A DNA stretch of 64,000 bases, taken from the NCBI RefSeq assembly GCF_055900595.2, contig NZ_CM148325.1. One strand, written 5' to 3'. The translations under genes and the position numbers were made by a program. The notes under the pieces are model-generated. The model was not told where the DNA came from, ran no database searches, and saw only the letters and a list, made by a program, of their open reading frames with translations. This document shows positions 12,605-62,805 of the stretch, one piece after another; within the stretch, counting starts at the first letter, position 1; each line of letters begins with the position of its first letter.

Positions 12605-12637
12605 GCAAAAAACCTGCCATCGCTGGCAGGTTTTTTA
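12605..12637. terminator. Bidirectional rho-independent terminator (typA and the upstream operon)
   Basis: A-tract, cctgccatcgctggcagg hairpin, then TTTTTT, between convergent genes. Confidence 0.8.
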
Positions 12638-21492: not shown

Positions 21493-21737
21493 AAGAAAAA
21501 AGGCGACAGATTACTCTGTCGCCTTTTTTCCTGACTCATAACCCTTAACGGGTCTTACAATCCTTGCAGGCCGCCAACACACCCTGTTTTTCCATTAGCC
21601 GGAACAATCCGTGTTGATTCCATTTCCGTTTAATTACGTCTCCGGACGTTTGTCTTCCTGACAATCCTCTGTCTTCGCCTCCTGGCGCTCCTGACCCTCA
21701 TCCTGAGTCATTGTTCCTGTTAGCGTCCTCGCTCTAT
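21493..21737 (-). ncRNA. csrC: CsrC small RNA (CsrA-sequestering)
   Basis: - strand begins ATAGAGCGAGGACGCTAACAGG, carries many GGA motifs (AGGATGAGGGTCAGGAGCGCCAGGAGG...) and ends in the ggcgacagagtaatctgtcgcc hairpin plus T-tract. Confidence 0.8.
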
Positions 21738-28682: not shown

Positions 28683-28712
28683 AAAAAAGCCCGTGAATAT
28701 TCACGGGCTTTA
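28683..28712 (-). terminator. dsbA rho-independent terminator
   Basis: gcccgtgaatattcacgggc hairpin followed by a T-tract on the - strand. Confidence 0.8.
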
Positions 28713-53633: not shown

Positions 53634-55061
53634 CTAGCGCGACTGCTGATTATATTCATCATCGCGTTGATAAGCTTCATCATTCGGCTGCTCCGGAACC
53701 GACCGCAGTCGATACTCTTCATCCTGGCTCACCGCTTGTTCAGCCAAATCCGGATTAATCTCGCGTTTAATTTCTACCCCTAAACCGCGAAACGCTTCTG
53801 CTTGCGCCAGCACATTTCCGCGACCTGAAGAGAGTTTTTTCATTGCCTGACGATAGTTGTCCTGTGCTTTGTCCAGACTTTGACCAATCGCGGACATATC
53901 ATCGACAAACAAGCGCATTTTGTCGTACAACTTGCTGGCGCGATCGGCTATTTTCTGGGCGTTACGACTTTGATGCTCATAGCGCCAGAGGTTGGCGATA
54001 GTGCGCAGCGCCACCAGCAGCGTGGTCGGGCTAACCAGCATGATATTGTTTTTCAACGCTTCGGTGATCAGCTCCGGCTGGCGGTCAAGCGCCAGTAAAA
54101 AAGCGGGTTCAACGGGAATAAACATCAGCACGTAATCCAGGGTTCGCAGCCCCGGCAGCTGTTGATAATCTTTGCGTCCCAGCAAACGGATATGGTTACG
54201 CACCGACGCGATATGTTCCTGTAGCGCGCTTTCGCGGGTGTAGTCGTCTTCTGCGTTGAAATAGCGTTCATAGGCGACCAGCGTCATTTTTGCGTCGATC
54301 ACCACAACTTTGCCCTGCGGCAGCCGCACGATGACATCCGGCTGCATCCGCGAGCGGGCGTCATTTTCGATGCTGACCTGGGTTTCATATTCATACCCTT
54401 CACGCAGACCGGAAGCCTCCAGCACACGCGTCAATACTACCTCGCCCCAGTTGCCCTGGGTTTTATTGTCGCCTTTCAGCGCACGCGTCAGGTTGATCGC
54501 TTCCTGGGCCATTTGCGCGTTGAGCTGCTGGAGATTGCGTATTTCGTGAGTCAGGGTATGGCGTTCTTGTGCTTCTTTACCGAAACTGTCCTGAACCTGA
54601 CGACGAAAACCGTCCAGTTGTTCACGTAGTGGCGACAACAGGCTGTTCAGACTCTGACGGTTTTGCTCATCAACCCGGCGATTGCTGTGCTCGAAAATAC
54701 GGTTGGCGAGGTTTTCAAACTGCTCACTGAGGCGCTGTTCGCTGTTGATCATTTGGCGAATTTTATCGTCAGCATGTTGCTGTACGGCCTCCATTCGCGT
54801 GGTGACCTCACGCAGATCCGCCTCCAGCGAGGTGTTAATGCTTTGCAGACTGCGCACTTCATTATTGAGTAACTCGCACTCAGCACGCCAATGTTCGCTT
54901 TGGGTAATTTGTTGTTTTGCCGCACTTAACTCCGCGACCATCTCTTCACGTTCAGCGAATTGCTCGGCTTTTTGCTGCGCATGCTGATAACTGGCAATCA
55001 GCCAGCCAATCGCCACGCTCACCAACGCAATAACTGCGTAAACCATGATTGAGATATCCAC
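53634..55061 (-). CDS. rmuC: DNA recombination protein RmuC
   Basis: 475 aa from a GTG start preceded by GGAGG; N-terminal TM helix and coiled coil. Confidence 0.85.
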   Translation of the reverse strand: MDISIMVYAVIALVSVAIGWLIASYQHAQQKAEQFAEREEMVAELSAAKQQITQSEHWRAECELLNNEVRSLQSINTSLEADLREVTTRMEAVQQHADDKIRQMINSEQRLSEQFENLANRIFEHSNRRVDEQNRQSLNSLLSPLREQLDGFRRQVQDSFGKEAQERHTLTHEIRNLQQLNAQMAQEAINLTRALKGDNKTQGNWGEVVLTRVLEASGLREGYEYETQVSIENDARSRMQPDVIVRLPQGKVVVIDAKMTLVAYERYFNAEDDYTRESALQEHIASVRNHIRLLGRKDYQQLPGLRTLDYVLMFIPVEPAFLLALDRQPELITEALKNNIMLVSPTTLLVALRTIANLWRYEHQSRNAQKIADRASKLYDKMRLFVDDMSAIGQSLDKAQDNYRQAMKKLSSGRGNVLAQAEAFRGLGVEIKREINPDLAEQAVSQDEEYRLRSVPEQPNDEAYQRDDEYNQQSR

Positions 55062-55179
55062 AACGCCTCCAGCCTCATTACTTACCCGCACAAAATAGAA
55101 TTGTGCTGTACAAACGTCCAGTTTGAAAGAAGTTTCCTGCGAGGCGCTACGCAAAACGATCCTTAATTTTTATTATTTT

Positions 55180-55215
55180 ATCCCACAATATGAGACGTAG
55201 TTTATATTGTGGGAT
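55180..55215. promoter_or_regulatory. Perfect 12-bp inverted repeat (candidate IclR-type operator)
   Basis: atcccacaatat (55180-55191) and atattgtgggat (55204-55215) are exact reverse complements separated by 12 bp, about 60 bp upstream of the IclR-family gene. Confidence 0.5.
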
Positions 55216-55276
55216 ATATCACCTTTTCCCCACGTCATTATGTGGAACACTTCAGCAATATCATCAGGAGAAACGT

Positions 55277-56044
55277 ATGGCAGATACCTCTTCAACCACC
55301 GCTGGCGCACAAACGTTATTACGCGGGCTGGCGGTTCTTAATGCTGTTTATAACGGCTGCCATGACCTGAAAAGTATCGGCGAGTTCACCGGCACGACCC
55401 GGAGCACAACCCATCGTTTAGTCACCGTTCTGGTGGAACAACGCTACCTGCGCCACGTCCCAACGCAGGGCTACCAACTGGGCGCCAAACTGATCGAATT
55501 CGGTGCCAGAGCACTGGAAAGCACCTCGCTGTACGAAGTTGCGCTGCCCGTTTTGCAGCGTCTGGCCCGTTACACCCTGGACACCGTGCATCTGGGGATC
55601 GTTGAAGGCGGCGAAGTGCTGTATCTGGAGAAGATCAACAGTCAGCGTGGGCTGGAAATGCGCTCACGCCCAGGCCATCGCATGCCACTGGCAATCACCG
55701 GCATCGGCAAGGCATTGATCCTCAACCGAACAGAAGAAGAGTGGCGCACGCTGTTTAAGACCTGTGGTGATGAAACAAAACTGGGCACATTTATTCAGAA
55801 CATGCGTCGTTATGCCGCCAGTGGTTTTGCTTTTGATCTGGAAGAGAACGAGCCGACTATCCGTTGCGTTGCAGCGCCGGTTTACAACGCCCGGGATGAA
55901 ATTGTGGCGGCTATTTCTGTCGCCAGTACCACTACGTATATGTCACTGGCGCGTCTGGAAGAACTGGCACCTTACGTCAAATCCTGTGCAGAAGAGATAT
56001 CCGCTGAACTGGGCTGGGGTAAGCACGTCCACAAAAATAAATAA
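55277..56044 (+). CDS. IclR-family transcriptional regulator
   Basis: 255 aa from MADTSS with CAGGAG upstream; N-terminal HTH and C-terminal effector domain. Confidence 0.85.
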   Translation: MADTSSTTAGAQTLLRGLAVLNAVYNGCHDLKSIGEFTGTTRSTTHRLVTVLVEQRYLRHVPTQGYQLGAKLIEFGARALESTSLYEVALPVLQRLARYTLDTVHLGIVEGGEVLYLEKINSQRGLEMRSRPGHRMPLAITGIGKALILNRTEEEWRTLFKTCGDETKLGTFIQNMRRYAASGFAFDLEENEPTIRCVAAPVYNARDEIVAAISVASTTTYMSLARLEELAPYVKSCAEEISAELGWGKHVHKNK

Positions 56045-56067
56045 ACCATGACTAAAGGAAACGGCTA

Positions 56068-57072
56068 ATGTCGGGAAACACCTCATTTATTGCCCTGGAC
56101 TGGGGAACGTCATCGCTTCGGGCATGGCGTTTTGGCGACTCACCCAATCCACAAGAAAAACGTGAATTCCCGTGGGGGATCATGAAATTACCCTCCCAGG
56201 CAGCAACACGTGAGGACGCTTTCCACGATACGTTTTTACGTGTCTGCGGCGACTGGCTGGCACAATCCCAATGCCCGGTTCTGGCTTGCGGCATGATCGG
56301 CAGTGCGCAAGGGTGGCAACCCGCAGCTTATTTACCTTGCCCGGTCACTCTCGAGGGTCTGGCAAAGCAGTTGACGCCTGTTATCTACCAGCAGCAGACA
56401 ATGCTGCACATCATTCCCGGCGTGATTAAAGAAGGTGAAATGCCCGAAGTGATGCGTGGCGAAGAGACACAAATCTTCGGTGCTATCTCGATGGAACCGG
56501 CCCTGCAAAACGCGATCCGCCAGGGTATGCCTGTGCTGATTGGCTTACCTGGCACACATGCGAAATGGGCGGTAGTTGAAAACAACACCATTACCGATTT
56601 CCGAACCTTTATGACAGGCGAGTTATTTGATGTTTTATCCCGCCATTCGATTCTCGGTGCCACCATGCGTTCGGGAGATGAACCGCACTGGGATGCCTTC
56701 ACCCATGGGCTGAAATCAGCACAAGAGCATCATCAGACCGGATTATTATCGACGCTGTTTTCGACCCGTTCGCGCCTGCTGACCAGTAATCTTACGCCGT
56801 CCTCGCAGGGGGATTACCTTTCAGGATTACTGATAGGCCATGAATTATGCGGTCTGGCATCCAGTTTGCTACGTGATTTACCCGCCACAACACCGATCGC
56901 CTTAATCGGTAGCGCCACTCTGAACAGCCGCTATTCACAAGCATTCAGCCACGTTTTTCCCGACAGACAGCTACACGCCATTCCTAATGCCACTGAACAG
57001 GGGTTATGGCGAATCGCCCACGCTGCCGGGCTACTCTCCACCAACGCCAGGGAATGTACTCATGCCATTTAA
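56068..57072 (+). CDS. 2-dehydro-3-deoxygalactonokinase (DgoK)-like sugar-acid kinase
   Basis: 334-aa ORF; N-terminal FIALDWGTSSLRAW resembles the DgoK family start. Confidence 0.7.
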   Translation: MSGNTSFIALDWGTSSLRAWRFGDSPNPQEKREFPWGIMKLPSQAATREDAFHDTFLRVCGDWLAQSQCPVLACGMIGSAQGWQPAAYLPCPVTLEGLAKQLTPVIYQQQTMLHIIPGVIKEGEMPEVMRGEETQIFGAISMEPALQNAIRQGMPVLIGLPGTHAKWAVVENNTITDFRTFMTGELFDVLSRHSILGATMRSGDEPHWDAFTHGLKSAQEHHQTGLLSTLFSTRSRLLTSNLTPSSQGDYLSGLLIGHELCGLASSLLRDLPATTPIALIGSATLNSRYSQAFSHVFPDRQLHAIPNATEQGLWRIAHAAGLLSTNARECTHAI

Positions 57073-57691
57073 TACGCTTTTGCAAAAAACCGGGTTAGTC
57101 GCCATTTTACGCGGCGTGAAACCGGATGAGATTGTCGCCATCGGTGAAAAGCTGTATGCCGCTGGATTTCGCCTGATTGAGATTCCCATGAACTCGCCGG
57201 AGCCGTTGCAAAGTATCAGTTTACTGCGCGACGCCCTGCCTAAGGACTGCCTGGTCGGAGCCGGAACTGTGCTTTCGGTGGAGCAAGTCGTCGCGGTTAA
57301 AGAGGCTGGAGGCCAGATTATCGTAATGCCGCATTGCGATACTGCGGTGATCCGTCGTGCCCGTGCGCTGGGTATGTATTGTGCGCCTGGCGTCGCTACG
57401 CCCACCGAAGCTTTTGCTGCCATTGAACATGGCGCCAATGCCATCAAGCTGTTCCCGGCTGAACAAATTACGCCTGAAGTCACCAAAGCCTGGCGTGCGG
57501 TTATTCCACAATCCGTTCCGATGTTACCGGTTGGCGGTATCACTCCAGACACAATGGCGCGTTATCTGAGCCACGGCGCAAACGGCTTTGGCCTCGGTTC
57601 TGCGCTATATCGCCCCGGCATGACGCCAGAGCAAGTCTATGAAAATGCAGTACTGTTTATGAACGCATGGAACAATTTAAATAGCAAATAA
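57062..57691 (+). CDS. 2-dehydro-3-deoxy-6-phosphogalactonate/KDPG-type aldolase (DgoA/Eda-like)
   Basis: 209 aa from MPFNTLLQKTGLVAILRG; start overlaps the kinase gene stop. Confidence 0.75.
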   Translation: MPFNTLLQKTGLVAILRGVKPDEIVAIGEKLYAAGFRLIEIPMNSPEPLQSISLLRDALPKDCLVGAGTVLSVEQVVAVKEAGGQIIVMPHCDTAVIRRARALGMYCAPGVATPTEAFAAIEHGANAIKLFPAEQITPEVTKAWRAVIPQSVPMLPVGGITPDTMARYLSHGANGFGLGSALYRPGMTPEQVYENAVLFMNAWNNLNSK

Positions 57692-57715
57692 CTGATAAAT
57701 AAGGATATAAAAGCA

Positions 57716-58690
57716 ATGATAAAACATCTTACCTTACCGAAAAAAATGGCTGCAATGGTACTTCTTGCCGGCGCTGCCCTCAGCACTGCGCCTGTGCAGG
57801 CGGCCTCCTGGCCAACCAAACAGATCGAGTTAGTCGTACCCTACGCGGCCGGAGGCGGTACGGATCTGGTTGCCCGTGCCTTTGCTGATGCCGCCAAAAA
57901 CCATTTGCCCGTCAGCATCGGGGTTATCAATAAACCTGGCGGTGGCGGCGCTATCGGCCTGAGTGAAATCGCCGCTGCCCGCCCTAACGGTTACAAAATG
58001 GGTTTAGGCACGGTTGAACTGACCACCCTTCCCAGTCTCGGAATGGTGCGTTTTAAAACCAGCGACTTTAAACCCATTGCCCGTCTGAATGCGGATCCGG
58101 CTGCTATCACCGTCCGTGCCGATGCACCGTGGAATAGCTATGAAGAATTTATGACTTACGCCAAAGCGAATCCCGGAAAAGTACGCATTGGTAACTCAGG
58201 CACCGGAGCAATCTGGCATCTGGCGGCAGCTGCACTGGAAGACAAAACGGGCGTGAAGTTTTCTCATGTCCCATATGACGGCGCAGCCCCTGCCATTACA
58301 GGCCTGTTAGGCGGGCATATTGAAGCGGTTTCCGTAAGCCCAGGTGAAGTTATCAATCATGTGAAAGGCGGCAAGCTGAAGACACTGGTAGTGATGGCGG
58401 ATGAACATATGAAAACCATGCCTGACGTACCGACGTTAAAAGAGAAAGGCGTTGATCTCTCCATCGGCACCTGGCGCGGCCTGATTGTGTCGCAAAAAAC
58501 GCCGCAGGATGTGGTGGATGTTCTGGCAAAGGCAGCAAAAGAGACGGCTGAAGAGCCTGCATTCCAGGATGCGCTGCAAAAGTTGAATCTCAACTATGCA
58601 TGGCTTGATGGTGCCAGCTTCCAGACCCAAATCAACGAGCAGGAAAAGTACTTTGACGAGCTGCTGACTCGCCTGGGCCTGAAAAAATAA
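57716..58690 (+). CDS. Tripartite tricarboxylate transporter substrate-binding protein (TctC/Bug family)
   Basis: 324-aa ORF with signal peptide; Bug-family-like. Confidence 0.8.
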   Translation: MIKHLTLPKKMAAMVLLAGAALSTAPVQAASWPTKQIELVVPYAAGGGTDLVARAFADAAKNHLPVSIGVINKPGGGGAIGLSEIAAARPNGYKMGLGTVELTTLPSLGMVRFKTSDFKPIARLNADPAAITVRADAPWNSYEEFMTYAKANPGKVRIGNSGTGAIWHLAAAALEDKTGVKFSHVPYDGAAPAITGLLGGHIEAVSVSPGEVINHVKGGKLKTLVVMADEHMKTMPDVPTLKEKGVDLSIGTWRGLIVSQKTPQDVVDVLAKAAKETAEEPAFQDALQKLNLNYAWLDGASFQTQINEQEKYFDELLTRLGLKK

Positions 58691-58706
58691 TCCCGAGGTA
58701 CGGTCG

Positions 58707-59213
58707 ATGAACACAAAACAGTCTGTTGCTCAACTCGCCGTACCGCACCGCAAGCGCCTTTCATCCACTGTGGTGGTGGCGCTGTTACTTTGTGTGGTTG
58801 CTGGCGCGGTGATAATTAATGCCGCTGATTTTCCAGCAACTGCCATTGAAACGGATCCCGGTGCAAGTGCCTTCCCTACTTTCTATGCCTGCGCTCTGAT
58901 TGTGCTCGCTGTCTTACTTGTGATACGCGATCTTTTGCTGGCAAAACCAGTCCCTTGCGCCAACGCACAGGAAAAACCGGCATTCAGGAAAACGGCAACA
59001 GGAATTGCGGCAACCGCGTTTTATATCGTGGCAATGAGCTACTGCGGTTATCTCATTACTACTCCTGTTTTCCTCATCGTCATTATGGCATTGATGGGCT
59101 ACAGGCGATGGGTACTCACACCGGGTATTGCGCTGCTGTTAACGGCAATCCTCTGGTTGCTGTTTGTCGAAGCGTTACAGGTGCCATTGCCTGTCGGCAC
59201 ATTTTTCGAATAA
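58707..59213 (+). CDS. Tripartite tricarboxylate transporter small membrane subunit (TctB-like)
   Basis: 168-aa ORF with four predicted TM segments, positioned between TctC-like and TctA-like genes. Confidence 0.7.
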   Translation: MNTKQSVAQLAVPHRKRLSSTVVVALLLCVVAGAVIINAADFPATAIETDPGASAFPTFYACALIVLAVLLVIRDLLLAKPVPCANAQEKPAFRKTATGIAATAFYIVAMSYCGYLITTPVFLIVIMALMGYRRWVLTPGIALLLTAILWLLFVEALQVPLPVGTFFE

Positions 59214-59225
59214 CAGGGGCCTGCA

Positions 59226-60716
59226 ATGTTTGAAAGTGAACTTTTAACTCAGGGGTTTTCGACATTACTCAGTAATCCTCAGGCGCTGCTGTTTGCCACG
59301 TTTGGAGTGATGCTGGGTATTATGATTGGCGCTCTGCCTGGCCTGACAGCGACCATGGGTGTGGCGATTTTGCTGCCTTTCACCTACGGCATGGAGCCTG
59401 TTTCTGGCTTGTTGATGATTTGCGGTGTCTTTTTTGGTGGTGTGTATGGTGGTTCTATCACCGCAATTTTGCTCAAAATTCCCGGTACGCCTGCCGCCGC
59501 TGCCACCGCCATTGACGGATATGAGCTGACGAAGCAGGGAAAAGCCGGGCTGGCGTTAAGTGCCGCCACGTTCTCTTCTTTTAGCGGTGGAACGCTCAGC
59601 ATTATCGTATTGATGTTTCTCTCTCCGGTACTTGCCAGTTGGGCGTTGAAATTTAGTGCCTCGGAGTCCTTCGCCCTGGCAACCTTCGGACTGAGCATTA
59701 TTGCCAGTATTTCCGGTGAGTCACTGATTAAAGGGCTGATTGCCGGGGTTGGCGGATTGCTTATCGCAACGATAGGCCTTGATCCAATGGGCGGTTTTCC
59801 ACGCTTTACAGGTGGATTTGTGGAGCTGATGAATGTGCCATTTATCCCGGTGATGATTGGTTTATTTGCTGCTTCAGAAGCATTCCGCTCTATGGAGCAA
59901 AACCAGCAAATTCGTCAGGGGGCGAAGGTGGCTATCGGCAGTCTGTTACTGCCCTGGCAAACACTACGCCGCATCGCATTAACCATTTTGCGCTCATCAG
60001 GATTAGGGGTTTTTATCGGCATGATCCCCGGTGCGGGGGCAGATATTGCAGCTTTTGTTGCCTATAACGAAACTCGTCGTTTCAGTAAGACGCCTGAAAA
60101 CTTTGGTAAGGGTGAGATTAAGGCGGTGGCCTCCTGTGAGGCAGGCGCGAATGGCTGCACCGGTGGCGCATTGTTACCTATGCTGACGTTGGGGATCCCA
60201 GGCGATGCGGTAACTGCCATCATGCTGGGCGCGTTAACGTTACAAGGGATGCAGCCAGGCCCACTTATGTTTACCGACCACGGCGATATGGTTTATACGC
60301 TGTTTGTCGGCATGATCTTTTGTTACTTCATGCTGCTAGTTCTTGGACTGCTCTCTTTGAAAGTCATCGGTAACGTGGTGAAGATCCCCGGCAATATTCT
60401 CACGCCGATGATCCTCGCACTTTGTGTGGTCGGGACTTATGCGCTGAACAATAGCCTGTTTGATGTTGGCATTATGCTGATTGCAGGCGTGGTGGGCTAT
60501 TTCATGCAAAAAGGGGGGTATCCGGCATCACCCGTAGTGCTGGCATTGATTATGGGGCCAATGGCGGAAAGTAATTTTCGCCGTGCGCTGTCGCTTTCTG
60601 GTGGGTCACTCGACTTTCTGTATACCCGACCGATAACCCTGGCATTGCTGACACTGGCAGCCTTTACGCTACTGACGCCAATAATACGCAAAATTATGCG
60701 CTTACGGCGTCAGTAA
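59226..60716 (+). CDS. Tripartite tricarboxylate transporter large permease (TctA-like)
   Basis: 496-aa polytopic ORF. Confidence 0.8.
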   Translation: MFESELLTQGFSTLLSNPQALLFATFGVMLGIMIGALPGLTATMGVAILLPFTYGMEPVSGLLMICGVFFGGVYGGSITAILLKIPGTPAAAATAIDGYELTKQGKAGLALSAATFSSFSGGTLSIIVLMFLSPVLASWALKFSASESFALATFGLSIIASISGESLIKGLIAGVGGLLIATIGLDPMGGFPRFTGGFVELMNVPFIPVMIGLFAASEAFRSMEQNQQIRQGAKVAIGSLLLPWQTLRRIALTILRSSGLGVFIGMIPGAGADIAAFVAYNETRRFSKTPENFGKGEIKAVASCEAGANGCTGGALLPMLTLGIPGDAVTAIMLGALTLQGMQPGPLMFTDHGDMVYTLFVGMIFCYFMLLVLGLLSLKVIGNVVKIPGNILTPMILALCVVGTYALNNSLFDVGIMLIAGVVGYFMQKGGYPASPVVLALIMGPMAESNFRRALSLSGGSLDFLYTRPITLALLTLAAFTLLTPIIRKIMRLRRQ

Positions 60717-60770
60717 TTGATATCGCTCCCCGACGTTGGGGAGTATGAGACTGATGACAAACGCTAAATT

Positions 60771-60871
60771 GCCTGATGCGCTGCGCTTATCAGGCCTACC
60801 ACAGAAATGCAATATATTGAATTTGCATGCTTTTGTAGGCCGGATAAGGCGATCACGCCGCATCCGGCATG
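60771..60871. repeat. REP elements
   Basis: gcctgatgcgctgcgcttatcaggcctac and gtaggccggataaggcgatcacgccgcatccggcatg. Confidence 0.7.
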
Positions 60872-60901
60872 AACAAAGCACACGTTAACAACAATCGGAA
60901 T

Positions 60902-60928
60902 GCTCCCCTAAGCCAGGGAGCGTTTTTT
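60902..60928 (+). terminator. Rho-independent terminator, + strand orientation
   Basis: gctccc ... gggagc hairpin followed by TTTTTT; the T-tract overlaps the udp stop codon. Confidence 0.6.
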
Positions 60929-61691
60929 ATTTCAGCAGACGACGCGCCGCTTCCACCACGATTTTCACCGCATGGCTTTCGGTTTGTTTCATCGTCTCAG
61001 CATTCGGGATCTCTTGTTGGGTACGATTGACGATAACGCCCGCCACCATACCGGCACGAAGGCCCTGGCTTGCACACATGGTCAGCAGGGTTGCAGATTC
61101 CATTTCATAGTTCATTACGCCCATCGCCTGCCACTCTTCCATAGAACCTTTAAAGTGACGAACTACGCGACCAGAGTAAGTATCGTAACGTTCCTGACCT
61201 GGGTAGAAGGTATCAGAAGAAGCCGTCACGCCAACGTGAGTCGTCGCGCCGATGGATTTCGCAGCCTCAACCAGCGCGGTCGTACATTCGAAATCAGCGA
61301 CAGCCGGGAATTCCAGCGGTGCGAAGTGCAGGCTCGCGCCATCCAGACGAACAGACGCCGTGGTAACCAGGACATCGCCAACATTAATATGCGGCTGAAT
61401 AGCGCCCGTTGTACCGATACGCAGGAAGGTGCGAATGCCCAGCTGTGCCAGCTCTTCAACTGCAATAGAGGTAGACGGGCCGCCGATACCGGTAGAGCAG
61501 ACGATAACAGGTTTACCATCCAGCTCTGCACGCCAGGTGGTGAATTCGCGGTGAGATGCCAGCTTAACCGGCTTATCCATCAGCGCGGCGATCTTTTCCA
61601 CACGATCCGGGTCGCCAGGGACGATGGCAAGCGTAGCCCCTTGTAAATCGTTTTTAGTGAGGCCGAGATGAAAAACATCAGACTTGGACAT
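60927..61691 (-). CDS. udp: Uridine phosphorylase
   Basis: 253 aa from [28 protein letters not shown]. Confidence 0.95.
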
Positions 61692-62775: not shown

Positions 62776-62805
62776 AGACCGGGTGGTATTACCACCCGGT
62801 TTGGA
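62776..62805. terminator. Bidirectional terminator between ysgA and metE
   Basis: accgggtggtattaccacccggt hairpin flanked by A/T-rich stretches on both sides. Confidence 0.7.

Follow-up and report, generated by a model that had tools for sequence, protein, structure and literature searches.

Between udp and rmuC, APEC O1 carries an islet of ~5 kb with six ORFs, the functions of which were not given (PMC3349570). We analysed a stretch of 64,000 nucleotides (contig NZ_CM148325.1 of RefSeq assembly GCF_055900595.2), called the window in the following, which resembles APEC O1 in the locus, the flanking genes and the gene number, its islet being 5772 bp long with six genes. The APEC O1 account does not describe the junctions of the islet or a terminator (PMC3349570), and a description of the islet terminator was not found in our literature search either. 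ETEC4085 and APEC O1-type strains have another island (the tkt1 region) on the ysgA side of this locus; it is absent from the window, where, unlike in APEC O1, ysgA is directly followed by metE.

Another point of reference is the native udp terminator of K-12 (AAGGCCGACGCGTTCGGCCTT TTGTATTTTT). The hairpin at the right end of the islet, which we call hp2, is like it a G+C-rich stem-loop of comparable stability with a U-run directly after it, and it is located past the last gene of an operon. In contrast to the K-12 terminator hp2 faces against udp, its U-tract overlaps the last codon and the stop codon of the convergent gene, and the two sequences are unrelated. With the bidirectional terminators described for convergent gene pairs (bioRxiv 10.1101/2022.10.23.513370) it shares the arrangement of a single stem-loop between convergent genes, the spacer being 33 nt long in most islet strains, but it does not show their symmetric upstream A-tract and downstream U-tract, as the upstream flank is AUCGGAAU and the U-tail is present on the plus strand only. 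BIME/REP sequences in 3' untranslated regions are also comparable, since a REP, an IHF-like core and a further REP fill most of the tctA-udp spacer of the window; unlike these, hp2 lies outside the repeated element and contains no REP sequence. The hairpin is probably an ordinary transcription-stop feature in an islet already known from APEC O1, and no new mechanism is implied.

The genes of the islet, which concern transport and sugar acids, were assigned from the RefSeq annotation of strain Z0117EC0005 (99.98% over 11 kb) and from Pfam matches, all of them above the gathering cut-off. Encoded on the plus strand are an IclR regulator (55277-56044), a DgoK-like kinase (2-dehydro-3-deoxygalactonokinase-like, 56068-57072), a KDPGal-type aldolase (DgoA-like, 57062-57691), a TctC/Bug binding protein (57716-58690), TctB (58707-59213) and TctA (59226-60716). 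These six genes (55277..60716) are co-directional and overlap or are at most 25 nt apart, and no strict terminator, as defined below, was found between them. On the left the islet is flanked by rmuC (53634..55061, minus strand) with a conserved upstream region reaching to 55156, and on the right by udp (60927..61691, minus strand). The break points of a BLAST comparison with K-12, at window positions 55156 and 60929, delimit 5772 bp of islet-specific DNA (55157..60928) that is absent from K-12, where ~43-47 bp are found instead. Judged by these limits the hairpin is part of the islet-specific DNA. It is located at the 3' end of the co-directional six-gene cluster ending with tctA, in agreement with the preliminary description, according to which it is oriented to stop the transporter operon. 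We also observed a perfect 12-bp inverted repeat, ATCCCACAATAT…ATATTGTGGGAT (55180-55215), immediately 5' of the IclR gene at the islet's left end. This repeat is probably the IclR operator/promoter region; related palindromes (ATCCCATATATAGGGAT) occur at the matching position in Klebsiella and Buttiauxella.

The stem-loop hp2 (60902..60921, plus strand) is formed by the arms GCTCCC (60902-60907) and GGGAGC (60916-60921), which pair perfectly over 6 bp, five of them G-C, and enclose the 8-nt loop CTAAGCCA. It is followed by the U-tract GTTTTTTATTT (60922..60932, plus strand) with a T-run at 60923-60928, the whole of 60902-60932 reading GCTCCC CTAAGCCA GGGAGC G TTTTTT A TTT. In the RNA the tail 3' of the stem is GUUUUUUAUUU, with 9 U per 11 nt. 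The core hairpin by itself has a folding energy of -10.0 kcal/mol, and with its flanks the plus-strand RNA reaches -15.6 kcal/mol (z = -3.8, with 0/200 shuffles as stable), the MFE fold stretching the hairpin to 60897-60926 via A-U and G-U pairs. A consensus terminator scan flagged the site on the plus strand and not on the minus strand, and by a Kingsford-type score the U-tail reaches 5.64 on the plus strand vs 2.49 on the minus strand, which fails. Scan, fold and tail scores are thus in line with the earlier claim that the hairpin and its T-tract read as an intrinsic terminator in the plus-strand direction alone. As a loose terminator scan of the window gave no excess over shuffles (14 sites vs 10.1 +/- 2.8), we applied a strict definition (a fully paired stem of ≥6 bp, ≥4 of these pairs being G-C; 3-8 nt in the loop; Kingsford-type tail score ≥3.9). 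With this definition 13 terminator-like sites were found in the 64-kb window vs 1.7 +/- 1.2 in Markov shuffles, and hp2 has the top plus-strand tail score among them. The site combines a stable G+C-rich stem-loop in the RNA, a U-rich tract directly 3' of the stem on the plus strand and a location 3' of the last gene of the unit in the same orientation, as expected for an intrinsic terminator. A search of Rfam families for hp2 gave only sub-threshold REP-derived matches and a chance match to a Phe leader (E = 0.22), and membership in such a family was therefore rejected.

From its anatomy, its position, the rarity of such sites, its association with the islet, its conservation, the analogous case in Klebsiella spallanzanii and the displacement of the native udp terminator, we conclude with a probability of about 0.8 that hp2 and its U-tract stop the rightward transcripts of the islet operon as a Rho-independent terminator of the conventional kind. 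RNA polymerase moving past tctA would transcribe GCUCCC-loop-GGGAGC and then GUUUUUUAUUU, and the hairpin would form in the exit channel with a weak rU:dA hybrid in the active site. The transcript would then be released just before, or a few nt into, the 3' end of udp, and termination at this point would spare udp antisense transcription from the islet. The literature search found no mapping of transcript 3' ends for strains with the islet.

To see how widespread this arrangement is, we used a survey set of 5426 complete E. coli genomes. The hairpin-free K-12 junction is present in 3969 of them and the islet with hairpin and T-tract against udp in 1456, which includes every islet-bearing genome (1456/1456). 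Together the two arrangements account for 5425/5426 genomes, showing that E. coli is cleanly dimorphic at this locus. Most islet-bearing genomes (1439/1456) possess a short allele with a tctA-udp spacer of 33 nt and a single hairpin (CGCTCCCC GAAGTT GGGGAGCG TTTTTT(T)ATTT; -16.5 kcal/mol) that starts 8 nt past the tctA stop and is directly followed by CGTTTTTT(T)ATTT. A long allele with two hairpins and a BIME-like element is found in the other 17/1456, the window strain included, and here the distance between the tctA stop and hp2 is 186 nt in the window. In the sampled islet strains the complementarity of the stem and a T6 or T7 run are kept, and the U-tract varies between T6 and T7 or by a G -> T change, always outside the udp reading frame. 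Counted against the terminator reading is that hp2 of the window is the weakest variant, with a 6-bp stem, an 8-nt loop and -10.0 vs -14 to -16.5 kcal/mol in the others. In the short allele the hairpin is so close to the tctA stop that a terminating ribosome could interfere with its folding, which also counts against this reading. The hairpin had been presented as the terminator of the islet; this can be maintained for the copy with the T-tract, but that copy is the second of two in 17 genomes, whereas 1439 genomes have a single hairpin. In the udp-ysgA region the identity of the window strain is 96.2% with K-12 as well as with ETEC4085, vs 97.5% between these two, and 94.3% with E. whittamii. 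Possibly the 17 long-allele genomes represent a divergent lineage of E. coli; alternatively, recombination may have affected the region.

The 3' end of udp reads CTGCTG AAA TAA in the window vs CTGCTG TAA in K-12. Positions 60930-60932, read in reverse complement, give its last sense codon AAA (Lys254), and 60927-60929, inside the T-rich tail of hp2, give its stop codon TAA; this overlap of the T-tract with the udp stop had been noticed correctly before. In K-12, 140 nt are found between udp and rmuC, and the udp TAA is directly followed by TTCTCTTCTCCTGTCTG AAGGCCGACGCGTTCGGCCTT TTGTATTTTT, an intrinsic terminator in udp orientation with a sequence unrelated to that of the window hairpin. An identical hairpin was sought in K-12 and is absent, and the different, udp-oriented terminator found there is conserved exactly in Salmonella enterica and Citrobacter, where udp, ~140 nt and rmuC follow one another and the stem AAAGGCCGACGCGTTCGGCCTTT is the same as in K-12, with the U-tract on the udp strand in all of them. 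Because Salmonella and Citrobacter share the udp-rmuC spacing and the exact K-12 stem, the islet-free arrangement with its udp-oriented terminator is ancient. That the hairpin belongs to a conserved 3' end of udp itself was ruled out, as K-12, Salmonella and Citrobacter have a different terminator.

Compared with K-12, the islet allele has replaced the native udp stop codon and the native terminator (~47 bp). As the 47 bp holding both are missing, udp ends with AAA TAA and Udp gains a C-terminal Lys, resulting in 254 aa in islet strains (…RRLLK) vs 253 aa in K-12. Read on the udp strand, the U-tract is an A-run (AAA TAA AAAA), and this now supplies both Lys254 and the stop. The proposed insertion of the island abutting udp can thus be retained in so far as the hairpin is located in islet-specific DNA, but not as a simple addition next to an intact gene end, since the ~47 bp with the native stop and terminator were replaced and Udp was extended by the Lys. 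This one-codon extension of udp was not found described in our literature search. A Udp of 254 aa was observed in islet-bearing E. coli and in E. whittamii, and one of 253 aa in K-12, Salmonella, Citrobacter and Klebsiella. When compared with TTTTTTATTACAG in K. spallanzanii, the sequence TTTTTTATTTCAG at the E. coli junction looks as if TAA had become AAA and the following in-frame TAA of the A-run had taken over as the stop.

With the native udp terminator missing from the window, the hairpin might possibly serve both convergent genes, as a bidirectional terminator or, for the udp transcripts too, as a 3' stabilising stem-loop or a site of RNAP collision, although we regard this as doubtful. 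It is the first stable structure past the udp stop, with -13.6 kcal/mol on the udp strand here and -17.4 in the short allele. According to published work, a stem-loop between convergent genes sets the site of head-on RNAP collisions by which both transcripts are terminated (bioRxiv 10.1101/2022.10.23.513370), and the presence of REPs between such genes is reported to go along with a higher expression of both (bioRxiv 10.64898/2026.03.23.713779). The udp strand, however, has no U-tract after the hairpin, its tail AUUCCGAUUGUUGUU scoring 2.49 and the corresponding GAUAUCAGUUAUUG of the short allele 1.99 vs 4.57 for the native K-12 udp terminator. In addition, hp2 was left unflagged on the minus strand, and three other sites of the window are symmetric bidirectional whereas hp2 is not.

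In the window a proximal copy of the hairpin, hp1 (60725..60744, plus strand; GCTCCCC GACGT TGGGGAG; -13.5 kcal/mol), is located 8 nt past the tctA stop. It has no T-tract because the BIME-like element adjoins it directly. This repeated element of 158 bp (60744..60901) separates hp1 from hp2 and consists of a REP (60771-60799), an AT-rich, IHF-site-like core (~60806-60828), which we take to correspond to the IHF site of BIME-1/RIP elements, and an inverted REP (60835-60869). Other E. coli copies with ~86-88% identity include those at fdhE-yiiF, rpn-yjiR and cycA, and Rfam gave sub-threshold matches to the REP-derived naRNA4 and ES036 at 60792-60874. That hp2 itself is a REP was rejected, as the homology to the copies at fdhE-yiiF, rpn-yjiR and cycA stops at 60901 and the Rfam matches do not extend beyond the region just given. 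The RefSeq record of MG1655 has no repeat features naming the 158-bp element, and a metagenome scan with a 16-mer of the element gave almost exclusively chance matches, with 1 real copy in 120 stretches. As hp2 alone keeps the U-tract, this distal copy would be the effective terminator in the window strain.

In MFDS1022581 (NZ_CP169399.1) hp2 is an exact copy of hp1, and the element is flanked by the 19-bp direct repeat GCTCCCCGACGTTGGGGAG. In the window hp2 differs from hp1 by five clustered substitutions (GACGTTG -> TAAGCCA) in the loop and the last stem pair (60908-60915), by which one base pair is lost, while the arms are otherwise identical. Such clustering points to gene conversion or a templated change more than to point mutations that arose one by one. 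E. whittamii possesses the BIME-like element without hp2 and without a T-tract, and its udp ends with AAA TGA. A whole terminator hairpin exactly duplicated around a BIME-like element is the most unusual feature in the neighbourhood, and it looks like a target-site duplication or like the result of a deletion between repeats; flanking duplications were not seen at the element copies of fdhE-yiiF, rpn-yjiR and cycA. From the exact 19-bp repeat in MFDS1022581 and the single hairpin at the same site in 1439 genomes one could derive that the two copies are the footprint of the arrival of the element, namely of a structure-targeted insertion in which the extruded hairpin was cut at both bases and filled in, but we consider this quite improbable. 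If true, terminator hairpins would be a preferred landing site, and the repeat would represent a target-duplication signature for REP/BIME mobility. To our knowledge such a signature has not been recognised so far, and target duplications at BIMEs were not found reported in the literature search.

The exact direct repeat of the hairpin around the element in MFDS1022581 would also fit a different explanation, in which hp2 is mainly a structural by-product with little termination of its own, being a hp1 duplicated or converted during entry of the element or a rearrangement, and in which the REPs or Rho act instead. The weakening of hp2 in the window by the cluster of loop changes and the lost base pair agrees with this, as do the case of E. 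whittamii, which manages without hp2, and the report of REP325 as a partly Rho-dependent terminator. We nevertheless find it unlikely, as the U-tract is kept or even lengthened to T7 in 5/5 window-type alleles read, the stem is still perfectly complementary in the alleles read, and hairpin and U-tract are kept together in 1439 genomes that do not have the BIME-like element.

The presence of two copies also allows an attenuator-like switch to be imagined, in which the 3' arm of hp1 (GGGGAG) pairs with the 5' arm of hp2 (CUCCCC) and blocks the terminator, leading to conditional read-through antisense to udp. The arms of both hairpins are identical, in the MFE fold computed for the entire spacer they pair across the element and not locally, and the tctA stop is located 8 nt upstream of hp1. 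Yet ~157 nt with two stable REP hairpins separate the arms, local hairpins are favoured when the RNA folds during transcription, and the arrangement, a trivial outcome of duplication, occurs in only 17/5426 genomes. There is no leader peptide or other sensing feature, and we regard such a switch as very improbable; the same applies to its being set by a ribosome at the tctA stop or by IHF on the BIME-like element.

In order to compare the terminator and the islet with those of other genera, species-representative genomes were scanned on the basis of TctA. The six-gene cluster was found between rmuC and udp in E. whittamii, Buttiauxella warmboldiae, Klebsiella spallanzanii and K. indica. That of Phytobacter massiliensis adjoins udp, with no rmuC found in the flank covered, and in Brenneria roseae the cluster is located elsewhere in the genome. 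The left islet junction after …CTACGCAAA is at the same place in E. coli, E. whittamii and K. spallanzanii and at roughly the E. coli place in K. indica and Buttiauxella. As the cluster occupies this locus in several genera and its left junction is shared, it is not a recent insertion into E. coli, and the presence/absence polymorphism is old or has been moved by recombination in the conserved flanks. The islet proteins of E. coli and Klebsiella are 86% (TctA), ~80% (TctC), ~65% (IclR), 58% (DgoA-like), 50% (TctB) and 48% (DgoK-like) identical, and the flanking proteins 95-97% (Udp) and 82% (RmuC); the islet alleles appear to be older or faster-evolving than the flanks.

The hairpins following tctA are unrelated in sequence between the genera. 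In K. spallanzanii GCCCCGG…CCGGGGC TTTTTTATTA CAGCAG forms a plus-strand terminator with a T-tract overlapping the udp stop, and this is, beyond E. coli, the only case of a plus-strand T-tract after tctA in the genera compared. The likeness suggests that the function has been kept while the sequence drifted. In Phytobacter and Buttiauxella the U-rich side of the hairpin faces udp, and the tctA-udp junction of K. indica shows a clear terminator on neither strand. A plus-strand U-tract after tctA was thus not found in Buttiauxella, Phytobacter and K. indica despite the same gene order, and this was counted against the terminator reading, as was the loss of the U-tract copy in E. whittamii. Concerning a terminator travelling with the cluster, the Brenneria copy was found to have an unrelated hairpin without a U-tract. 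For the idea of the preliminary description that the island was inserted with its own terminator, the hairpins of Brenneria and the other genera, being unrelated, give no support, and it may be kept as a possibility only. In the genomes compared, a plus-strand terminator at the tctA-udp junction is recurrent, but neither universal nor indispensable.

In ~27% of the complete E. coli genomes the 3' end of udp is altered: the protein is one Lys longer, the native terminator is gone, and the end of a convergent operon lies at a distance of 33 nt. Antisense RNA would arise if transcription from either side read through the tctA-udp junction. Knowledge of this arrangement is of value for annotation and for strain-to-strain differences in expression. 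Moreover, three natural alleles, one with a single hairpin and U-tract, one with two hairpins split by the BIME-like element and one with the element and without a U-tract (E. whittamii), offer a ready comparison for the protection of a convergent housekeeping gene by an intrinsic terminator.

Other terminator-like sites were also seen in the window. Symmetric hairpins with U-tails on both strands are located at 12612-12631, 21503-21522 and 28689-28708 and look like textbook bidirectional terminators, in contrast to the one-sided hp2. The sequence ACCGGGTGGTAATACCACCCGGT at 62778-62800, on which ysgA (plus strand) and metE (minus strand) converge, has a terminator-like score on both strands and is a candidate for a bidirectional terminator.
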